From Thermoplasmata archaeon (GTDB lineage: Archaea; Thermoplasmatota; Thermoplasmata; Lutacidiplasmatales; UBA184), in the NCBI GenBank assembly GCA_027315165.1, contig DAHUYN010000007.1:10260-74259 (forward strand): 64,000 nucleotides of DNA. Direction: 5' to 3'. The stretch's first letter is position 1. Every line of letters starts with the position of its first letter. Made by a program: the position numbers and the translations under genes. Shown here in pieces: positions 35,437-43,070 of the stretch. The notes beneath the pieces are model-generated. The model worked only from the letters and a program-made list of their open reading frames with translations, made no database searches and had not been told where the DNA came from.

Positions 35437-36794
35437 CGCGCGCGGGCCGTGCCCCGGCCGGCGAGAAGGTCGAACACGTCCCGGCCCGCGACCGTCCCGA
35501 GGGTCCCCAACGCGGCGGCCCGCTCGCCGAACTTCGTGCCGGAGCCGCCGGTCGCGGGCACGCCCGCGCCGACGAGCAGGAACGGGACGGGGTCGTCCGC
35601 GTGCCCCTTGAGGACGCACGGCGTCGCGTGGTCGGCCGTCACGGCGAGCCGGCAGCGTCCGAGGTCGACCCCCTCGAGGAACGGTCCGAAGAAGGAGCGG
35701 TCGAGCGCCTCGACGATCTCCTTCTTGCGGAGCGCGTCGCCGTCGTGACCGGGCTCGTCCGGCCCCTTGAGGTGGACGTAGACGAACGGGTGGGTCCGAA
35801 GGGCCTCGAGCGTCACGCGCGCCCGCTCGCGGAGCGCTGCGTCCCGGTCCGCGCCCATCGGGCCGACGAACAGGTCCGTGAGACCGAGGACCCTCGCGAT
35901 CCCGCGCTCGACGGGCATCTCGGTCACCGCGGCCCCGGGGACGTGGTGCCGGGCCTCGAAGGTGGGCCCCGGCGTCCCCGAGAGGCTGCCGGCGTTGCGG
36001 ACCAAGAGCGCGTTCGCGACCTTGCGGCCCCGTAGCGCCCGGCGGGCGTTCACGGGGTGGCCGGCGAGAACCGGGGCGGCCCGTTCGAGGAACCGGTTGA
36101 CCGCGGTGGCGGTCCTCGCGGCCGACGGTCCGTCGGCGAGCGGGTGGACCTCGAGGAGGCGCGGCGTCTCGACCGAGACCGCGCGTCCCATCCCGCCGAC
36201 CCTCTCGTAGAACGGGTCCGCGTTCGAGACCTCCGGCGAGAGCGAGACCCCGCTACGGGGGTGGAGCCAGAGGACCCCGCGATGGCCGACCGTCGCGCGG
36301 ACCTCGGCCTGGATCCCGTCGGGGCCGAGAAGGTCGGCCTCGGTGAGCGCGCGAGCGAGCTCGCGCGCCTCCTCGGTGCCGAGCGAGCGCCCGACTCGCG
36401 AGTCGAGGATCGCCCCGGCCCCGTCGGAGGTGGCGAAGTTCAGACGGAGGGCCACGTCGACGGGCGAGAGCGGGACCCCGACCCCGAGCGCCTCGAGGAC
36501 CCCGCGCCCGGGCGAGTCGGTCACGGGGTCGAAGCCGAGCAGCGCGTAGACGCCCGCGTCGGACTCCGGCGCCACGCCGGGCCCGACGACCGAGACGACC
36601 CCGAGCTGACCGAGGGCGGCGAGACGGTCGAGGTTCGGTGTCGCCGCCGCCTCGACGGGGCTGAGGCCGCCCGTGGCCGGGTGGGGACGGTCGCCGAGGC
36701 CGTCCAGGATGATGAGCGCGAGCGCGGGGGGCGCGGGGCCGTTCCGGCTCGCCGGTGCGGTCGTCGCCAAGGTCGGAGGGAGCGGCGGACGCAT
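35433..36794 (-). CDS. apgM: 2,3-bisphosphoglycerate-independent phosphoglycerate mutase, archaeal ApgM type
   Basis: ALIILDGLGD N-terminal metal site and an AlkP-superfamily core. ATG at 36794, with a possible leaderless TTG at about 36770; the upstream Arg-rich extension is rejected. Confidence 0.8.
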   Translation of the reverse strand: MRPPLPPTLATTAPASRNGPAPPALALIILDGLGDRPHPATGGLSPVEAAATPNLDRLAALGQLGVVSVVGPGVAPESDAGVYALLGFDPVTDSPGRGVLEALGVGVPLSPVDVALRLNFATSDGAGAILDSRVGRSLGTEEARELARALTEADLLGPDGIQAEVRATVGHRGVLWLHPRSGVSLSPEVSNADPFYERVGGMGRAVSVETPRLLEVHPLADGPSAARTATAVNRFLERAAPVLAGHPVNARRALRGRKVANALLVRNAGSLSGTPGPTFEARHHVPGAAVTEMPVERGIARVLGLTDLFVGPMGADRDAALRERARVTLEALRTHPFVYVHLKGPDEPGHDGDALRKKEIVEALDRSFFGPFLEGVDLGRCRLAVTADHATPCVLKGHADDPVPFLLVGAGVPATGGSGTKFGERAAALGTLGTVAGRDVFDLLAGRGTARAR

Positions 36795-36796
36795 AG

Positions 36797-36802
36797 TTAT
36801 AA
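36797..36802. promoter_or_regulatory. palindromic TATA box TTATAA shared by divergent genes (apgM on the minus strand, zinc-ribbon membrane protein on the plus strand)
   Basis: The sole A/T patch in the 34-nt divergent gap, 27 nt upstream of the GTG at 36829 and abutting the apgM ATG at 36794. Confidence 0.35.
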
Positions 36803-36828
36803 GGAGCACTCCGCTCGCTCGGCCGTCC

Positions 36829-37890
36829 GTGCAGCCGACGCGGGGCATTAAGGGCTTCTTGGCGAGCCGTCCCGGGCTCGTCGTTCTCGGTCTCATCGCC
36901 GTCGGCGCGATGGTCGGAAGCTTCCTCTACCTCGGGCCGTTCATCGCGATCCCGACGCTCCTCCTCTTCGGTCTGGCGATCCCGATCTACGCGGGCTGGA
37001 AGCGCCCGCGGGTCCTCGTCCTCTTCGGGATCGTCGTGCTGCTCGCCGCCGCCCCCCTCGCGACGCTCGCCGACAACCAGGCGATCCGCGCCCCGTCCCC
37101 CGCCTACGCGAGCTCGACGGCGGCGCCGTACGGGAACGGGGGCTCGGTCCTCCAGGGGGCGCTGGCGACGCCGTACACGGGCCTACCGGGCGGCGTCTAC
37201 GAGTTCACCGCCACGGTGCACCCGGAGTACTCGCCCACGAACGCCTCGACGCCGCTCTGGGTGGAGCTGTTCGTCTCGACCTGCCCGGGCGCGACCGGGA
37301 ACTCCTCCCCCAACTGCGGCAGCGGCTACCCGTTCCTGCTCGAGAACGAGTCGCTCCCCGCGAACCTGACCGCGCCGCACTCGGTCTCCTTCAACGTGAC
37401 CCTCAACGGGACGAACATCTGGTGGTGGCAGATGGCGGCCGTTGTCGAGACCCCTGCGAACTCGGGGAACCTCACCTGGATCTTCCTCGACGTCTCCAAC
37501 GGCTACGGGGCCGTGCAGGGTCCTGTCACCGGCGACTTTGCCGCGACCTACGGCGTCATCCTGCTGCCGATCACCGAGGTGATGTTCCTCTACTCGGGGA
37601 CCGTCTTCCTGGTGGGCCTGCTCGTCTACATGTTCCTCAAGGCCCGGGAGGCCCGCCGGCGGCGCCCCCCGATCACGTCGGGCGGAGCGCCGGCGGGCGG
37701 CCCCGCCGCCGGGGGCGGGAGCTCCGAGACGGCCTCCGCGAGCGCCTCCCCGAGCCCCTCTCCGGAAGCGGCGTGCCCGAACTGCGGGGCCGTCGTCTAC
37801 CCGAGCGAGAGCGCCTGCTGGAAGTGCGGGGCCAAGCTTCCGGCGCCGGACGCGACCCCACCCTCGTCGGCGCCGCTCAAGGGCGCGTAG
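36829..37890 (+). CDS. membrane glycoprotein with N-terminal TM helices, an extracellular N-glycosylated domain, a second TM and a cytoplasmic C-terminal zinc ribbon
   Basis: GTG start 27 nt downstream of a palindromic TTATAA box. TM helices LVVLGLIAVGAMVGSFLYLGPFIAIPTLLLFGLAIPIY. Extracellular NAS/NSS/NES/NLT/NVT/NGT sequons. A TM VMFLYSGTVFLVGLLVYMFL. The terminal ribbon is CPNCGAVVYPSESACWKCGAKL. Confidence 0.5.
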   Translation: MQPTRGIKGFLASRPGLVVLGLIAVGAMVGSFLYLGPFIAIPTLLLFGLAIPIYAGWKRPRVLVLFGIVVLLAAAPLATLADNQAIRAPSPAYASSTAAPYGNGGSVLQGALATPYTGLPGGVYEFTATVHPEYSPTNASTPLWVELFVSTCPGATGNSSPNCGSGYPFLLENESLPANLTAPHSVSFNVTLNGTNIWWWQMAAVVETPANSGNLTWIFLDVSNGYGAVQGPVTGDFAATYGVILLPITEVMFLYSGTVFLVGLLVYMFLKAREARRRRPPITSGGAPAGGPAAGGGSSETASASASPSPSPEAACPNCGAVVYPSESACWKCGAKLPAPDATPPSSAPLKGA

Positions 37891-37986: not shown

Positions 37987-40149
37987 TCAGGTGAACGTCG
38001 TCGCCTGGTTCAGGATCGAGAGCGGCATCTGGTCGTTGTAGACGTACAGGTCGACCAGCGTGCTCGCGACCGAGACGCTCAGCGTGAACGGACCGTTGGA
38101 AGGCGCCTGCCAGGTGAGCGTGAGCCAGACGATCCCACCCGTCCCCGACACCGTCGAGGTCGCGGTGACGCCGACGCCGTTGTAGAGCGCGAGCGTGCCG
38201 TTCACGCGGAGCGAGGCGACGACCGCCGTCCCGGCGGGCCCGTTGTCGCGGACGCCGACGTAAACGGTCGTCGGGCGCGTGTGGCTGAGCCCGAGCAGGG
38301 TCACCTGGGCCAGGCCGACGTCGGCGAGGGCGCGGCCGCTCGACGAGGAGCTCGAGAGACCCGCCATGTAGCCGATGAGATTGTAGAGGAGGGCCGCGCC
38401 GGCCTGACCCGTCCCGAACGAGCTGCCCGAGGGGAGGGGCGTCGTGAGGAGCGCCGGGTCGGCGGCGAGGCCGACGCTGTGGCCCGTGCCGACATCCCCG
38501 ACGACGTTGGTGCCGGCCTTGAGGAAGGCGGTTCCGGTGACGCCCTGGGAGAAGTAGTCGTACGGGACGAACTGGCTCGAGGTCGAGAGCGTCTTGTTCA
38601 GCGTGAGCGTGGCCGGGACGCCGTCGGACCGGAGCCCGATCGCGCCGGAGCCGGCGTAGGCGACCGACGCCGTCGCGTTCGGCACGGTGACGCACGTCCC
38701 CGAGCTCGTCCACTTCGCGCCGACCAGGGAGAAGTAGGCGCTCGTGTAGCTCGTGCAGGTGGTCAGCCCGAAGGCGAAGGCGCCCGTGAGGAGGAACGAC
38801 GGCCCGCTCGCGCCGGTGATCTTCGCCTGCTCGGTCGTGCTCGGGGCCTTCGGGCAGCCGCTCGCCCAGTTGCTCCCGAAGTTGATCAGGACGAGCCCGT
38901 AGCTGTTGAACGTCGTCGAGGCGGGCAGGCCCGTCGTGCAGGCGACGAACATCGAGGTGAACGGCACGCCGGCGGCCGTGAGCTCCTGCGCGAGATACGC
39001 GCTCGAGTTGTACGAGGTCCGGACGCCGTTGAGGACGTTGTGCGCGACGAACAGGATCCTCGGGAAGACGGTCAGGTTCAGGGTCGCGGTCGTGACGGTG
39101 GTCCCGCCCGTGGTCGTGACGGCCTCGAGGAGGTAGCTGCCCGGGAGGGACGGCGTCCAGGTCGCCGTCACGACGGCCGTCGAGCCGGCCGGGACCGACC
39201 CGGTCACGTTCGAGAACGCCGCGCCGTTCGCCAGGAAGGAGACGGTCACGCTCGCCCCGGCGCCGCCGGCGGCGACGTAGTCGCTGAGCAGGACCGGCAC
39301 GCCCTTGACGGGGGCCGTCGTGTTCGCGCCGAGCGTCGAGGTGAACGCGCTCGCCGACGCCTCGATCGTCACGGTGAAGGCGATGCTGTTGCGGATCCCC
39401 GAGGCGTCGGTGGCGTTGACGAACAGGTAGAACGTCCCGGTCGAGCTCGTGGTCCCCGAGGCGACGTTGTAGGACCAGAGCCCCGTCACCGCGGAGAAGG
39501 TCATCGCAACCAGGCCCGTGCCCGGAATACCGGGGAGGAGCGAGAGGTTCGCGTAGACCGAGTGGGTGTTCAGCGTCGGGTCCGTGATCTGGACGCTGAC
39601 CGAGAAGGCCTCGCCGACCTGCGGCGTCGTCGGGGAGATCAGGACGCGCACGAACGTCGGGGCCGCGGCGAGCGTCTGGCCGGGGAGCGTCACGCGGAAG
39701 AGCAGCTGCGTCGAGGTGACGACGGAGATCGTGAGGTTCTCCGCCGCGGGGAGCGCGGCGCTCGTCACGTCCGCGTACCAGCTCTGGCCGAGGTTCCAGC
39801 TCGTCGAGCCGTTGAGACCGGAGGCGACGGTGAACGGCGAGGGGAACGCTGTCGGAGCGCCGGAGGCGTAGAGGTAGACCAAGGCCGTCGTCGGGACGGT
39901 CGGCCCGGCGAGGTGCAGCACGTTCACGCCGACGATCTGGGTACCCGCGGCGTTGTAGACGAGCCGGGCGGAGAACTGGTCCGCCGGCTGCGGCGACGGC
40001 GTCGGGAACGTGCTCACGAAGAAGAAGATCGACGAGAACAGCGTCACCGTGAGGCCGAGGAGCAGGATCGTCCCGACCACGTCCGATACGCCACGGCGCT
40101 TCCACCGGCGGGACGACCGTCGGGTCCCCCCGAACCCTCGTGCTGTCAA
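37987..40149 (-). CDS. large secreted/surface glycoprotein with an archaeal class III (type IV pilin-like) signal peptide
   Basis: Frame of ORF 37987..40332. N-terminus ...RRSSRRWKRRG|VSDVVGTILLLGLTVTLF matches the prepilin-peptidase motif [KR]G-[VA]S-x-V-[IV]-x-T-[IV]-L-[LI]. There are dozens of NxS/T sequons and no C-terminal TM. Proposed TTG start at 40149, with a GGAGAG SD and a TATA box upstream. Confidence 0.65.
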   Translation of the reverse strand: MTARGFGGTRRSSRRWKRRGVSDVVGTILLLGLTVTLFSSIFFFVSTFPTPSPQPADQFSARLVYNAAGTQIVGVNVLHLAGPTVPTTALVYLYASGAPTAFPSPFTVASGLNGSTSWNLGQSWYADVTSAALPAAENLTISVVTSTQLLFRVTLPGQTLAAAPTFVRVLISPTTPQVGEAFSVSVQITDPTLNTHSVYANLSLLPGIPGTGLVAMTFSAVTGLWSYNVASGTTSSTGTFYLFVNATDASGIRNSIAFTVTIEASASAFTSTLGANTTAPVKGVPVLLSDYVAAGGAGASVTVSFLANGAAFSNVTGSVPAGSTAVVTATWTPSLPGSYLLEAVTTTGGTTVTTATLNLTVFPRILFVAHNVLNGVRTSYNSSAYLAQELTAAGVPFTSMFVACTTGLPASTTFNSYGLVLINFGSNWASGCPKAPSTTEQAKITGASGPSFLLTGAFAFGLTTCTSYTSAYFSLVGAKWTSSGTCVTVPNATASVAYAGSGAIGLRSDGVPATLTLNKTLSTSSQFVPYDYFSQGVTGTAFLKAGTNVVGDVGTGHSVGLAADPALLTTPLPSGSSFGTGQAGAALLYNLIGYMAGLSSSSSSGRALADVGLAQVTLLGLSHTRPTTVYVGVRDNGPAGTAVVASLRVNGTLALYNGVGVTATSTVSGTGGIVWLTLTWQAPSNGPFTLSVSVASTLVDLYVYNDQMPLSILNQATTFT

Positions 40150-40204
40150 GGTCTCTCCGAACCCGAGACCGGGTCGGTACGACCGTAAACATGGCGGGCC
40201 TCGG

Positions 40205-40211
40205 TATTTAG
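40205..40211 (-). promoter_or_regulatory. TATA box (CTAAATAC on the minus strand) for the class III signal-peptide glycoprotein gene
   Basis: About 55 nt upstream of the proposed TTG start (40149). A GGAGAG SD-like sequence sits 3 nt before the TTG. Confidence 0.35.
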
Positions 40212-40440
40212 ACGTTCTCGCGGGCCCGCGGACCCCCCGCGGCGTCTCGTTCGTGGCTCCGCGCCGCGACCCACACGTATGCGCACCGGCCGCGCGCCGT
40301 CCGGGGCGACCGGCGCGACCCCGGTTATACACAGGTCCGGCCGCGACCGGCCCGAGTTTCGACGAGCCCCGGATTTGTTCGACACGTCAGCCGGGACCCG
40401 CGCCGGGGGGTCCCGGCGTCTCTCGCCGCAACACGTGGGA

Positions 40441-40452
40441 TTTGTTTAAGTA
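40441..40452 (+). promoter_or_regulatory. TATA-like box (TTTGTTTAAGTA) for the RHH/FtsZ-like operon
   Basis: About 29 nt upstream of the GTG at 40481. Confidence 0.45.
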
Positions 40453-40456
40453 GGTG

Positions 40457-40476
40457 GGCGCGGCATAGCTCGCGCC
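40457..40476 (+). promoter_or_regulatory. palindromic candidate operator (GGCGCG-gcatagct-CGCGCC) between the TATA box and the RHH gene start
   Basis: A 6-bp perfect inverted repeat with an 8-nt spacer, positioned over the predicted TSS. RHH proteins typically autoregulate through such palindromes. Confidence 0.35.
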
Positions 40477-40480
40477 AGTC

Positions 40481-40984
40481 GTGTTCGACAAACCCACCCC
40501 TCGGCCCCCGGAGCGCTCTCCCGAGCCCTCCGGCCGCCGGGTCGGCCCCGAGGACGAGCGGATCGCGCTGCGGTGCAACCGCAGAGAGCTCCAGCTCCTG
40601 GACTCGTTCGTCGCCAGCGGCGAGTTCCGAAGCCGGTCCGAGCTCATGCGGAGCGCGCTCCAGGAGTTCCTCAGGGCGCGTGCGTCCGAGGCGGTCTCCG
40701 CCCCGGCCGCCGCCCTGCCGCCGGGCCTCGTCGAGGTCCCGGTGCGCCTGCGCCGAGAGGAGGTCGAGGCCTTCACGACCTACGCCGAGCAGGTGGCGAA
40801 CGGGCAACCGCTCGCCGACCTGCTGGCGACGGTGCTCCGCCGCGGTGAGGTGGAGCTGAAGGTCTCCGAGCTCGCGAAGCGGGCCCGCCAGCAGCGGACA
40901 GAGGCCGACGAGGCGCGAGCCTCGTTGAGCGAGCTGTCGCGCAGTGGCGAGGACCTCGCGCGTCGGGGGGTCGTGGGCCGGTAG
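40481..40984 (+). CDS. ribbon-helix-helix (CopG/MetJ-like) DNA-binding protein with a C-terminal coiled-coil
   Basis: 167 aa with a GTG start. RHH core IALRCNRRELQLLDSFVASGEFRSRSELMRSALQEFL (beta strand plus two helices), then a helical charged region (ELKVSELAKRARQQRTEADEARASLSELSRS). Confidence 0.6.
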   Translation: MFDKPTPRPPERSPEPSGRRVGPEDERIALRCNRRELQLLDSFVASGEFRSRSELMRSALQEFLRARASEAVSAPAAALPPGLVEVPVRLRREEVEAFTTYAEQVANGQPLADLLATVLRRGEVELKVSELAKRARQQRTEADEARASLSELSRSGEDLARRGVVGR

Positions 40985-41013
40985 GCCGCGGGGGAGAGGA
41001 CACGCTACCAGGG

Positions 41014-41928
41014 GTGGGAGCGACGTACGAGAACGAGCTGGAGGAACGCGGGGCAGAACGAACACCGGAGCGGACCGACGAGGGCTTCGAGGACATCGTC
41101 TTCGAGGCGCCGCGGCTCGGCCACGACATCCGGTTCATCTTCGCCGCCGTCGGCGGCGGCGCGGTCCGCATCGGCCGTGAGGTCGCGAATCACCACCTCA
41201 AGTACGTCGAGACCGTGGCGATCAACTGCGACGCCCAGGTCCAGGACCTCGAGGAGTACGACCGCCGGGTCTACCTCGGTCCGCACGATGGCACGGCCGG
41301 CGACACGCGCGGCTCCCCCTCGGAGGGCGGCCAGATCGCCCGCGCCGCGATGCCCGCCCTCGAGCGGATCTTCGACGGCGCCACGTTCGTCACCGTCCTC
41401 TGCAGCCTTGGCGGCGGCTCCGGCACCGGAGCGCTCCCCTACGTCATCGAGGCCGCCGTGCGCTCCGCGCGCGTCGTCACGGTCTTCGCCGTCAAGCCGT
41501 TCAAGGTCGAGGGCGACCGCCGCGCCGTCGCCGACCGCGCGCTCGCCCGGCTCCACTTCGTCGAGCCGTTCGTCGAGAAGCAGGAGTTCGGGGCCGCCCG
41601 CCTCCAGATCCTCGACAACGAGTCGCTCCACACGAAGGGCCGGACGATGCTCTTCAAGGACGTGAACCTCCACTGGGGCCGCGTGATCGCGACGCACATC
41701 GACCGGTCGTTCATCGGTCCGTCCGAGCACGAGCTCGCCAAGTTCCACGAGAACCACCCGGTGCCGGCCCCGACGCTCGCCACGAGCCTCGAGCTGCCGC
41801 GCCCCGCGGCCCTCGACCCGATGGCGCTCCCGCCTCTCCTCCCGCAGGCGGGCTGGGCGCCCGAGGCGCCGTCCGAGACGGAGCTCACCTTCGAGGTCGA
41901 CCGTCCCGGCGGCCCGGGTCTCTCGTAG
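41014..41928 (+). CDS. FtsZ/tubulin-superfamily GTPase-domain protein, truncated form (N-terminal GTP-binding domain only)
   Basis: 304 aa. G-box IRFIFAAVGGGAVRIG, AINCDAQVQDL (compare FtsZ AVNTDAQAL), tubulin signature LGGGSGTG, and VFAVKPFKVEGDRRAVADRALARL (compare FtsZ VVTKPFNFEGKKRMAFAEQGI). No recognisable T7 loop or C-terminal domain follows. Confidence 0.65.
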   Translation: MGATYENELEERGAERTPERTDEGFEDIVFEAPRLGHDIRFIFAAVGGGAVRIGREVANHHLKYVETVAINCDAQVQDLEEYDRRVYLGPHDGTAGDTRGSPSEGGQIARAAMPALERIFDGATFVTVLCSLGGGSGTGALPYVIEAAVRSARVVTVFAVKPFKVEGDRRAVADRALARLHFVEPFVEKQEFGAARLQILDNESLHTKGRTMLFKDVNLHWGRVIATHIDRSFIGPSEHELAKFHENHPVPAPTLATSLELPRPAALDPMALPPLLPQAGWAPEAPSETELTFEVDRPGGPGLS

Positions 41929-41992
41929 GGGCGGCGCGGCCCCGGACGCCGACCGCGCGCAACCTTAAGTGCGGAGCCGACTCGGAGCGGCG

Positions 41993-42157
41993 ATGGACGC
42001 GCGGCTCACGGTCGGCCTCGGCACCTTCGTGCTGCCGGCCGCGCTGATCGGGGTCACCGTCTGGAAGTTCTCCTCGAACCCCCTGGCCGTGCTCGCCCTG
42101 CTCGCGGTGATGCTCGTCGGCGGCTTCTACCTGCTGAGCTACACGGGCTCGGAGTAG
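41993..42157 (+). CDS. small 2-TM membrane protein (about 54 aa)
   Basis: MDARLTVGLGTFVLPAALIGVTVWKFSSNPLAVLALLAVMLVGGFYLLSYTGSE, directly downstream of the FtsZ-like gene on the same strand. Confidence 0.35.
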   Translation: MDARLTVGLGTFVLPAALIGVTVWKFSSNPLAVLALLAVMLVGGFYLLSYTGSE

Positions 42158-42980: not shown

Positions 42981-43070
42981 CGGCGCGAGGTAGGTTCGAC
43001 AGTACTAAGCCCTTCGGAGCGCGTCAGCGCCGCGCAAAGGCCCAAGTACTCGCCGCCCGGTGACCGCGCT

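Follow-up and report, generated by a model that had tools for sequence, protein, structure and literature searches.

A 64,000-nucleotide (nt) stretch of contig DAHUYN010000007.1 (assembly GCA_027315165.1; 73% G+C) from a Thermoplasmata archaeon (Lutacidiplasmatales; UBA184), referred to here as the window, carries on its plus strand a gene for a CdrS-like ribbon-helix-helix (RHH) protein (40481-40984; 167 amino acids (aa), GTG start), followed after 29 nt by a gene for an FtsZ-like protein (41014-41928; 304 aa, GTG start) and then by a gene for a two-helix membrane protein (41993-42157; 54 aa, ATG start). An earlier note, made from the letters of the window, had singled out these three open reading frames (ORFs), and all three are present on that strand at these positions. 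From our analysis, the module is best classed as a so far undescribed branch of the archaeal cdrS-ftsZ-type locus, built on an FtsZ paralogue cut to its N-terminal domain (a short FtsZ, or half-FtsZ). The reading we favor, to which we give about an even chance of being right, is that the module is a Thermoplasmata-specific derivative of this division locus, in which the half-FtsZ modulates cell division and does not polymerize in the canonical manner. In the literature searched, we found no earlier account of short FtsZ proteins from Thermoplasmata or Methanomassiliicoccales.

The membership of the 304-aa protein in the FtsZ/tubulin superfamily and its truncation, both proposed earlier, are borne out by Pfam, AlphaFold2, Foldseek and a comparison of short forms, all of which stop after H7. 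The protein scores 50 bits against the Pfam Tubulin model (PF00091), above the threshold of 33, over residues 45-173, and 65.6 bits against TIGR00065 (ftsZ), far under the curated cut-off of 295.2. Solved FtsZ structures match it at E = 2.6e-13, over residues 44-180 only. An affinity to TubZ or PhuZ was considered and set aside as weak next to that to FtsZ, with E = 0.003 for the TubZ-type RepX and just E = 4e-5 for the PhuZ PHROG match. The G-box GGGSGTG aligns with GGGTGTG of M. tuberculosis FtsZ, and a 35-sequence alignment shows invariant nucleotide loops: GGG (T1), NCD (T2), GS (T3), SLGGGxGxG (T4), PFxxExxRR (T5) and LDNE (T6). Because the nucleotide-contacting loops T1-T6 are all invariant, the short FtsZ is expected still to bind GTP. 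In the same alignment, T6 is followed by an H7-like HW..HIE segment, an invariant P-x-E, a variable proline-rich stretch of ~50 residues and, finally, a C-terminal peptide. This peptide reads ETELTFEV in the window (41875-41898, plus strand) and E-x-E-L-T-F-E-V/I in the family consensus, with E290, F293 and E294 invariant and L291 and T292 nearly so; it is a candidate short docking motif that may bind a partner.

The AlphaFold2 model (mean pLDDT 79) consists of an FtsZ N-domain at residues 34-210, a single long helix at 214-247 and a disordered tail, and Foldseek aligns ~200 columns (targets of ~305 residues) with the N-terminal halves of numerous FtsZ structures at TM ~0.5. The FtsZ_C subdomain has no Pfam match in the protein and is absent from the AlphaFold2 model. 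Also absent is the T7 loop NxDxxD, at whose position F-I/L-x-P-x-E lies inside a predicted helix, with E238 as the sole invariant acidic residue of the segment. The half-FtsZ therefore shares with canonical FtsZ (TIGR00065; FtsZ1/FtsZ2) the N-domain GTPase fold, the nucleotide loops, the G-box, H7, the disordered linker and the C-terminal peptide, but it differs in lacking FtsZ_C and T7, in an 8-residue insert before S6 and in an H7 that is shortened and then extended. The lower longitudinal surface of FtsZ/tubulin filaments is made up of the T7 loop and the C-terminal subdomain (PMC12583498), and since both are missing, the short FtsZ should be unable to extend a canonical head-to-tail filament.

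The pair of RHH and short FtsZ genes is conserved far beyond the window, which makes the observation more general than the earlier note saw. A one-genome-per-species scan counted at least 133 GTDB species, and 80 loci were examined, all labeled Thermoplasmata save one labeled “bacterium.” A word-indexed search returned 475 relatives of the 304-aa protein, all of ~300-310 aa; an exhaustive profile search gave 21 clusters (50% identity) at E <= 1e-30, with scores falling sharply from 138 to 110 bits between the short family and canonical FtsZs. The nearest relatives of the window are Thermoplasmata genomes assembled from metagenomes, Candidatus Lutacidiplasmatales and UBA184 among them. In Lutacidiplasmatales-like genomes the block is syntenic as pilin, RHH, short FtsZ, two-helix membrane gene, PAC2, fen and FTCD, and synteny within these genomes alone is little evidence of functional linkage. 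More distant short FtsZs (260-300 aa), which form a large family in Methanomassiliicoccales, break off at this same position behind H7. Directly upstream of them, every readable locus has a homologous two-repeat RHH gene, and the other neighbors vary, including IleRS and POR; a Zn-ribbon protein and NAD kinase; and NDK, Sua5, MetAP and RNA polymerase.

The RHH gene is upstream of the FtsZ-family gene and on the same strand in the window and in the 80 Thermoplasmata loci wherever upstream sequence exists. The same layout recurs in the distant loci L006, L007, L088, L090-L092, L094 and L096, and at these loci, as well as at L067, the pair is retained in a changed genomic context. Because diverged homologous pairs sit in unrelated Methanomassiliicoccales neighborhoods, we regard the pair as a conserved unit; of the trio proposed earlier, the RHH and FtsZ-like genes thus stay together across contexts, and the membrane gene is not constant. 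The Methanomassiliicoccales short FtsZs are less diverged, scoring up to 229 bits on TIGR00065 and reaching profile position 229 of 353, and the motif in their tails, of PEAELIHAS type, is a clear relative of ExELTFEV; the simplest reading is therefore that the truncated FtsZ and its partner arose once. The pair was found in two orders of Thermoplasmata and in several lineages that are unplaced. A pseudogene is ruled out by the uniform length and the invariant active-site loops across many species.

Two observations concern other FtsZ-family proteins met in these searches. Among the nearest non-family matches in the short-FtsZ profile search are single polypeptides that join two complete FtsZ units in tandem (P0262, 826 aa; P0264, 731 aa), with two G-boxes and two T7 loops. 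A Methanomassiliicoccales-type short FtsZ (P0499, 261 aa) has a precomputed Tubulin_2 (PF13809) match besides PF00091, a hint that its profile may overlap somewhat with those of Makarova and Koonin's FtsZ-like families.

The upstream gene had been read as encoding an RHH DNA binder with a long helical tail, and this description holds. The top NCBIfam match of the 167-aa protein is CdrS (NF058555; E = 1.2e-5, residues 26-69), accompanied by a weak Pfam match to RHH_1 (E = 0.004), and CdrS is the top NCBIfam match in 36 of 36 family members, down to E = 1.5e-7, with all scores under the cut-off. AlphaFold2 places helices at residues 34-46, 52-70, 92-104 and 111-161, the last a C-terminal helix of 50 residues predicted with high confidence. 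The partner family (232 relatives, 165-167 aa) is better conserved than the FtsZ-like protein and is organized as a first RHH repeat (~aa 24-70), a variable linker, a second RHH-type repeat (~aa 85-125) and the long helix (aa 111-161), with the C-terminal residues GVVGR invariant. The second repeat contains the block VEVPVRLR-x-DEVE..Y..V.NG..L.D.LA..VRRG, whose strand-helix-loop-helix pattern is like that of RHH. In the Methanomassiliicoccales partners, this second block matches the RHH_1, RHH_8, CdrS and NikR-RHH models, and a profile comparison of the window protein with these partners gives collinear homology across both repeats (probability 92.8%, E = 4e-7). On the strength of these distant homologues, the 167-aa partner is apparently a doubled RHH protein.

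A side observation in one Methanomassiliicoccales lineage is a 177-aa zinc-ribbon/DZR protein encoded divergently and directly upstream of the RHH gene (L094, 4832-5365, and L095, 955-1488, both on the minus strand), which may be a further component of the module. The haloarchaeal proteins CdrL and CdpC are likewise zinc-ribbon proteins tied to FtsZ.

The earlier note recognized no described system in this arrangement, and thereby missed the nearest one, the archaeal cdrS(RHH)-ftsZ2 locus (PMC7439475, PMC8406309, PMC8178401). There, in an arrangement conserved across Euryarchaeota, cdrS adjoins ftsZ2 and is co-transcribed with it, and CdrS is an RHH regulator of division genes (PMC7439475, PMC8406309); ftsZ2 also often lies beside a “parD” gene, an RHH-type annotation (Pende et al., PMC8178401). 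The module resembles this locus in having an RHH gene, with CdrS as top match, directly upstream of an FtsZ-family gene on the same strand and apparently co-expressed with it, and in having candidate binding sites in promoter regions. Unlike CdrS, which has ~60 aa and a single RHH, the partner has two RHH-type repeats and the 50-residue helix within its 167 aa. Unlike FtsZ2, which is full length and whose GTPase is needed for ring constriction, the short protein has neither the C-terminal subdomain nor the T7 loop, and its tail is ExELTFEV where archaeal FtsZ carries a “GID” motif (PMC8178401). A further difference is that the conserved sites are found solely at the module's own promoter.

These sites are copies of TGTTCGACA (extended consensus tTGTTCGACACgtCag). 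The upstream copy, a candidate operator, occupies 40376-40384 on the plus strand, ~70 bp upstream of the TATA box, and the second copy (40482-40490, plus strand) overlaps codons 1-4 of the RHH gene (GTG TTC GAC AAx, MFDK). The window holds exactly these 2 copies, versus 0.11 expected, and a degenerate third TGTTCGACA-like copy at 40358. An archaeal TATA-like box, TTTAAGTA, lies at 40446-40453 on the plus strand, ~35 nt before the GTG start; the earlier note had put the TATA box at 40441. TTTAA.TA is invariant in a four-locus promoter alignment, and from its position we infer that TTTAAGTA works as a promoter element. The module transcript probably has little or no leader. Two TGTTCGACA copies lie 104-107 bp apart (~105 bp in the window) in 73 of 83 orthologous loci; the spacing is 126-127 bp in three loci, and six loci have a third copy at 126-127 bp. 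There are no minus-strand copies and just 3 stray ones in 1.1 Mb, and GTGTTCGACAA opens the RHH gene in 69 of 79 loci.

Related sites occur at the promoters of the other lineages. Methanomassiliicoccales promoters have three to five (G/T)TATGACA copies around the TATA box, and at one such locus (L092) a related site overlaps the start codon (ATG TAT GAC). Two TGTCCGACAAA copies stand between the TATA box and the ATG in L096, and in other orders TGTATGACA or TGTCCGACA repeats are found on both sides of the TATA box or after it. The core common to the sites of all lineages is TGTnnGACA, and its conservation at the RHH promoter suggests autoregulation, with the RHH protein as the putative binder.

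Within ±8 kb of the module there are no further conserved TGTTCGACA copies. One-mismatch variants are enriched window-wide (19 observed versus 5.35 expected), and none of them is conserved in relatives outside the RHH promoter, including the one at 42993-43001 in the PAC2/fen intergenic region. A wider regulon was therefore rejected, and TTC-GAC codon usage is the probable source of the excess. The GC-rich palindrome at 40457-40476, previously put forward as the operator, shows no conservation among orthologous promoters. Between the TATA box and the upstream TGTTCGACA copy, the window also has a perfect 10-nt inverted repeat (GCCGGGACCC/GGGTCCCGGC, 8-nt spacer; 40390-40417), which the four-locus promoter alignment shows not to be conserved.

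According to the favored reading, the RHH protein would bind TGTnnGACA sites on both flanks of the TATA box, including the site that covers the start of transcription and translation. Its long helix might let it oligomerize, and the 105-bp spacing, ~ten helical turns, would make looping possible. As an oligomeric repressor, it would autoregulate a two-gene transcript with little or no leader, a behavior that fits sites overlying the transcription start at near-whole helical-turn spacings. Co-transcription of the RHH and FtsZ-like genes, on such a transcript, is suggested by the 29-nt gap, which contains a purine-rich Shine-Dalgarno-like stretch read from the sequence (GGGGGAGAGGA, 40990-41000, plus strand), and by the 23-nt overlap of the two genes in L096. 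The short FtsZ would act as a GTP-dependent modulator of the division machinery. It could, for instance, use its nucleotide face to dock where canonical FtsZ filaments expose T7 and so block their growth, and its C-terminal peptide would tether it to a partner, in some lineages perhaps the two-helix membrane protein encoded next to it.

The earlier alternatives had included a regulator or capper of the FtsZ ring, which is still viable and is the mechanism that we favor. Du et al. (PNAS, 2018) reportedly found that engineered bottom-face FtsZ mutants cap filaments and act as sub-stoichiometric poisons of treadmilling. Like these mutants, the half-FtsZ has an intact nucleotide top face and a missing or defective bottom face; they, however, are laboratory point mutants of full-length FtsZ, whereas the half-FtsZ is natural and conserved, is missing a whole subdomain and has a putative interaction with FtsZ.

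Several observations pull away from this interpretation. The CdrS score of the 167-aa protein is 25 bits versus a curated cut-off of 100, its AlphaFold2 monomer has no beta-ribbon (pTM 0.34), and a profile-profile comparison with hhalign detected no internal second RHH repeat within the window's own family. In the short FtsZ, the invariant P236-x-E238 after H7 leaves room for a residual T7-like function, and a novel polymerization interface is conceivable. The short FtsZ may descend from FtsZ2 or from FtsZ1: the closest solved relative is M. jannaschii FtsZ1, also for a less diverged short form (P0279, 160 bits), in a PDB that contains no FtsZ2 (entry 9V7V is OdinFtsZ1), and BLAST of the short FtsZ against FtsZ representatives is equivocal on the question. 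Finally, sequence and predicted structure are what GTP binding, DNA binding, contact with canonical FtsZ and the tail's role are proposed from.

If the interface just mentioned were real, the N-domain-only FtsZ might polymerize through the extended H7 and the P-x-E into a new kind of filament, a membrane cytoskeleton independent of the Z-ring. The post-H7 sequence is strongly conserved, H7 is unusually long and modeled with high confidence, and a membrane protein is adjacent in some lineages, all of which would suit such a filament. Makarova and Koonin proposed the same of FtsZl1, which also has no recognizable T7 and C-domain elements (PMC2875224). We nevertheless consider this alternative unlikely, as tubulin-family polymerization without the C-terminal domain would be unprecedented and the membrane partner is not universal. 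In that paper, FtsZl1 and FtsZl2 are diverged FtsZ-superfamily proteins. T6-H7 and the canonical C-terminal domain are unrecognizable in FtsZl1, whose members are long (1,051 aa in the founding one) and combine a coiled coil with an alpha-helical C-domain. FtsZl2 proteins come from proteobacteria and have ~300 aa in their C-terminal region, and for one of the two families the abstract names vWA, GTPase and OmpA genes as neighbors (PMC2875224). Membership of the 304-aa protein in either family was rejected, since it matches PF00091 and not PF13809, its neighbors are RHH, membrane, PAC2 and fen genes, and size, domains and context all differ.

A second alternative dispenses with the division ring and treats the short FtsZ as a GTP-sensing co-regulator that alters DNA binding by the RHH protein, the two forming a transcriptional switch. 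The tight coupling of the genes (the 29-nt gap here and the overlap in L096), an operator dedicated to the module's own promoter and long helices that could pair in both proteins are compatible with it. The tail peptide and linker, however, look like the partner-docking architecture of FtsZ and not like that of a co-repressor, the C-terminus of the partner differs between clades whereas the FtsZ tail motif is kept, and a regulon beyond the module was undetected in the available sequence. This switch, too, is improbable.

A further idea, which we hold to be speculative and quite improbable, would make the pair, together with the membrane protein where present, a hitherto unknown GTP-switched bridge from a specific chromosomal DNA site to the division or membrane machinery. 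The doubled-RHH/coiled-coil protein would sit on TGTnnGACA, and the half-FtsZ would attach through its nucleotide face to the ends of canonical FtsZ filaments and through its tail to a membrane or adaptor partner, serving as a natural capper for nucleoid occlusion or positioning.

The earlier note had pointed to the logic of TubR/TubZ or ParR/ParM segregation systems. In a machine of this kind, the RHH/coiled-coil protein would be a centromere-binding adaptor on the TGTTCGACA repeats and would catch an FtsZ-like motor filament by its tail, with the two-helix protein as membrane anchor. TubR of the pBtoxis system is a winged-helix protein. As in TubZRC and ParMRC, a DNA-binding adaptor gene lies beside a cytoskeletal NTPase gene, the repeats around its own promoter recall parC/ParR, the flexible tail of the GTPase ends in a conserved peptide, like that of TubZ, and a membrane protein is adjacent in many lineages. 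TubZ, however, keeps both tubulin domains and polymerizes, whereas the half-FtsZ has lost the C-terminal subdomain and T7 loop used by all characterized tubulin-family filaments, and its FtsZ affinity is far above that to TubZ/RepX. ParM is actin-like, and the NTPase here has the tubulin/FtsZ fold. TubZRC and ParMRC are plasmid- or phage-borne with many iterated repeats, whereas the module is a single-copy chromosomal core locus with conserved synteny and no mobile-element signature across the species counted above; it has just 2-3 sites, all at its own promoter and none elsewhere in the 64 kb, and its membrane gene is dispensable in several lineages. With the polymerization half missing, a GTPase that is FtsZ-like and not TubZ-like, and a chromosomal core locus with few sites, a segregation device has little support; it is the weakest of the polymer, co-regulator and partition alternatives and distinctly unlikely.

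A decaying remnant, in the form of a truncated ftsZ pseudogene beside a CopG/ParD plasmid or toxin-antitoxin leftover, could appeal to the shortness of the FtsZ-like protein and to the weak scores of its neighbor's RHH domain on antitoxin models (ParD, RelB, VapB), but this reading is refuted by the conservation data: a uniform 300-310 aa with invariant catalytic-site motifs in the at least 133 species and in further diverged orders, and a conserved chromosomal position. A defense or mobile-element origin is not supported either, given the core synteny, no PADLOC hits and weak PHROG matches only.

FtsZ-based division in archaea is poorly understood, nothing is known of it in Thermoplasmata, and cultured relatives in this class are largely wall-less. 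An FtsZ paralogue that has kept its nucleotide face and dropped the face that extends the filament suggests a natural experiment. Should the half-FtsZ prove to cap or tune filaments of canonical FtsZ, it would be the first such protein from nature and would offer a handle on filament polarity and on the dynamics of the archaeal Z-ring. The doubled CdrS-like partner and the footprinted TGTnnGACA operator constitute a directly testable archaeal autoregulatory circuit. Databases label the short proteins as “cell division protein FtsZ” or “hypothetical protein,” labels that mask that they cannot be ordinary FtsZ.

The third gene of the module encodes a 54-aa protein with two hydropathy peaks, in which P15, T22, F26, N29-P30, G43, Y46-L47 and Y50 are conserved (81-sequence consensus). 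The computed ORF list starts this gene at 41969, and the ATG at 41993 is the start in 73 of 79 orthologues. A TATA-like box, CCTTAAGTG, lies at 41963-41971 on the plus strand, 28 nt upstream of this ATG, and a TTAAGAG, TTTATGAG or TTATAAG element stands at a like distance (27-33 nt before the ATG) in the 45 loci compared. Because the small gene has this conserved box of its own, the single three-gene operon proposed earlier is doubtful. The membrane gene lies 190-690 nt from the FtsZ-like gene in 6 of 79 loci and is absent from the Methanomassiliicoccales loci and the L067/L073 lineage; in L096/L097 it still adjoins the short FtsZ gene though the genomic context differs. Given its own TATA-like box, variable spacing and absence in several lineages, we treat it as a probable lineage-restricted accessory: the small two-helix protein does exist, as the earlier note described, but it is not a regular third member. 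Insertions of 370-690 nt separate the short FtsZ and membrane genes in L030, L045, L051, L077 and L080.

In the window, the module is followed by PAC2 and then a fen/XPG gene, and there is no second FtsZ homologue in the 64 kb. Directly upstream, on the opposite strand (37987-40332), a large pilin-like gene encodes a 781-aa protein whose N-terminal domain is that of archaeal type IV pilins (PF07790), and this pilin-domain gene is syntenic with the module in most Lutacidiplasmatales-like genomes. Further upstream, on the plus strand (36673-37890), lies a gene for a predicted membrane protein with a Pro/Ala/Ser-rich linker followed by a terminal CPNC...CWKC zinc-ribbon-like motif.

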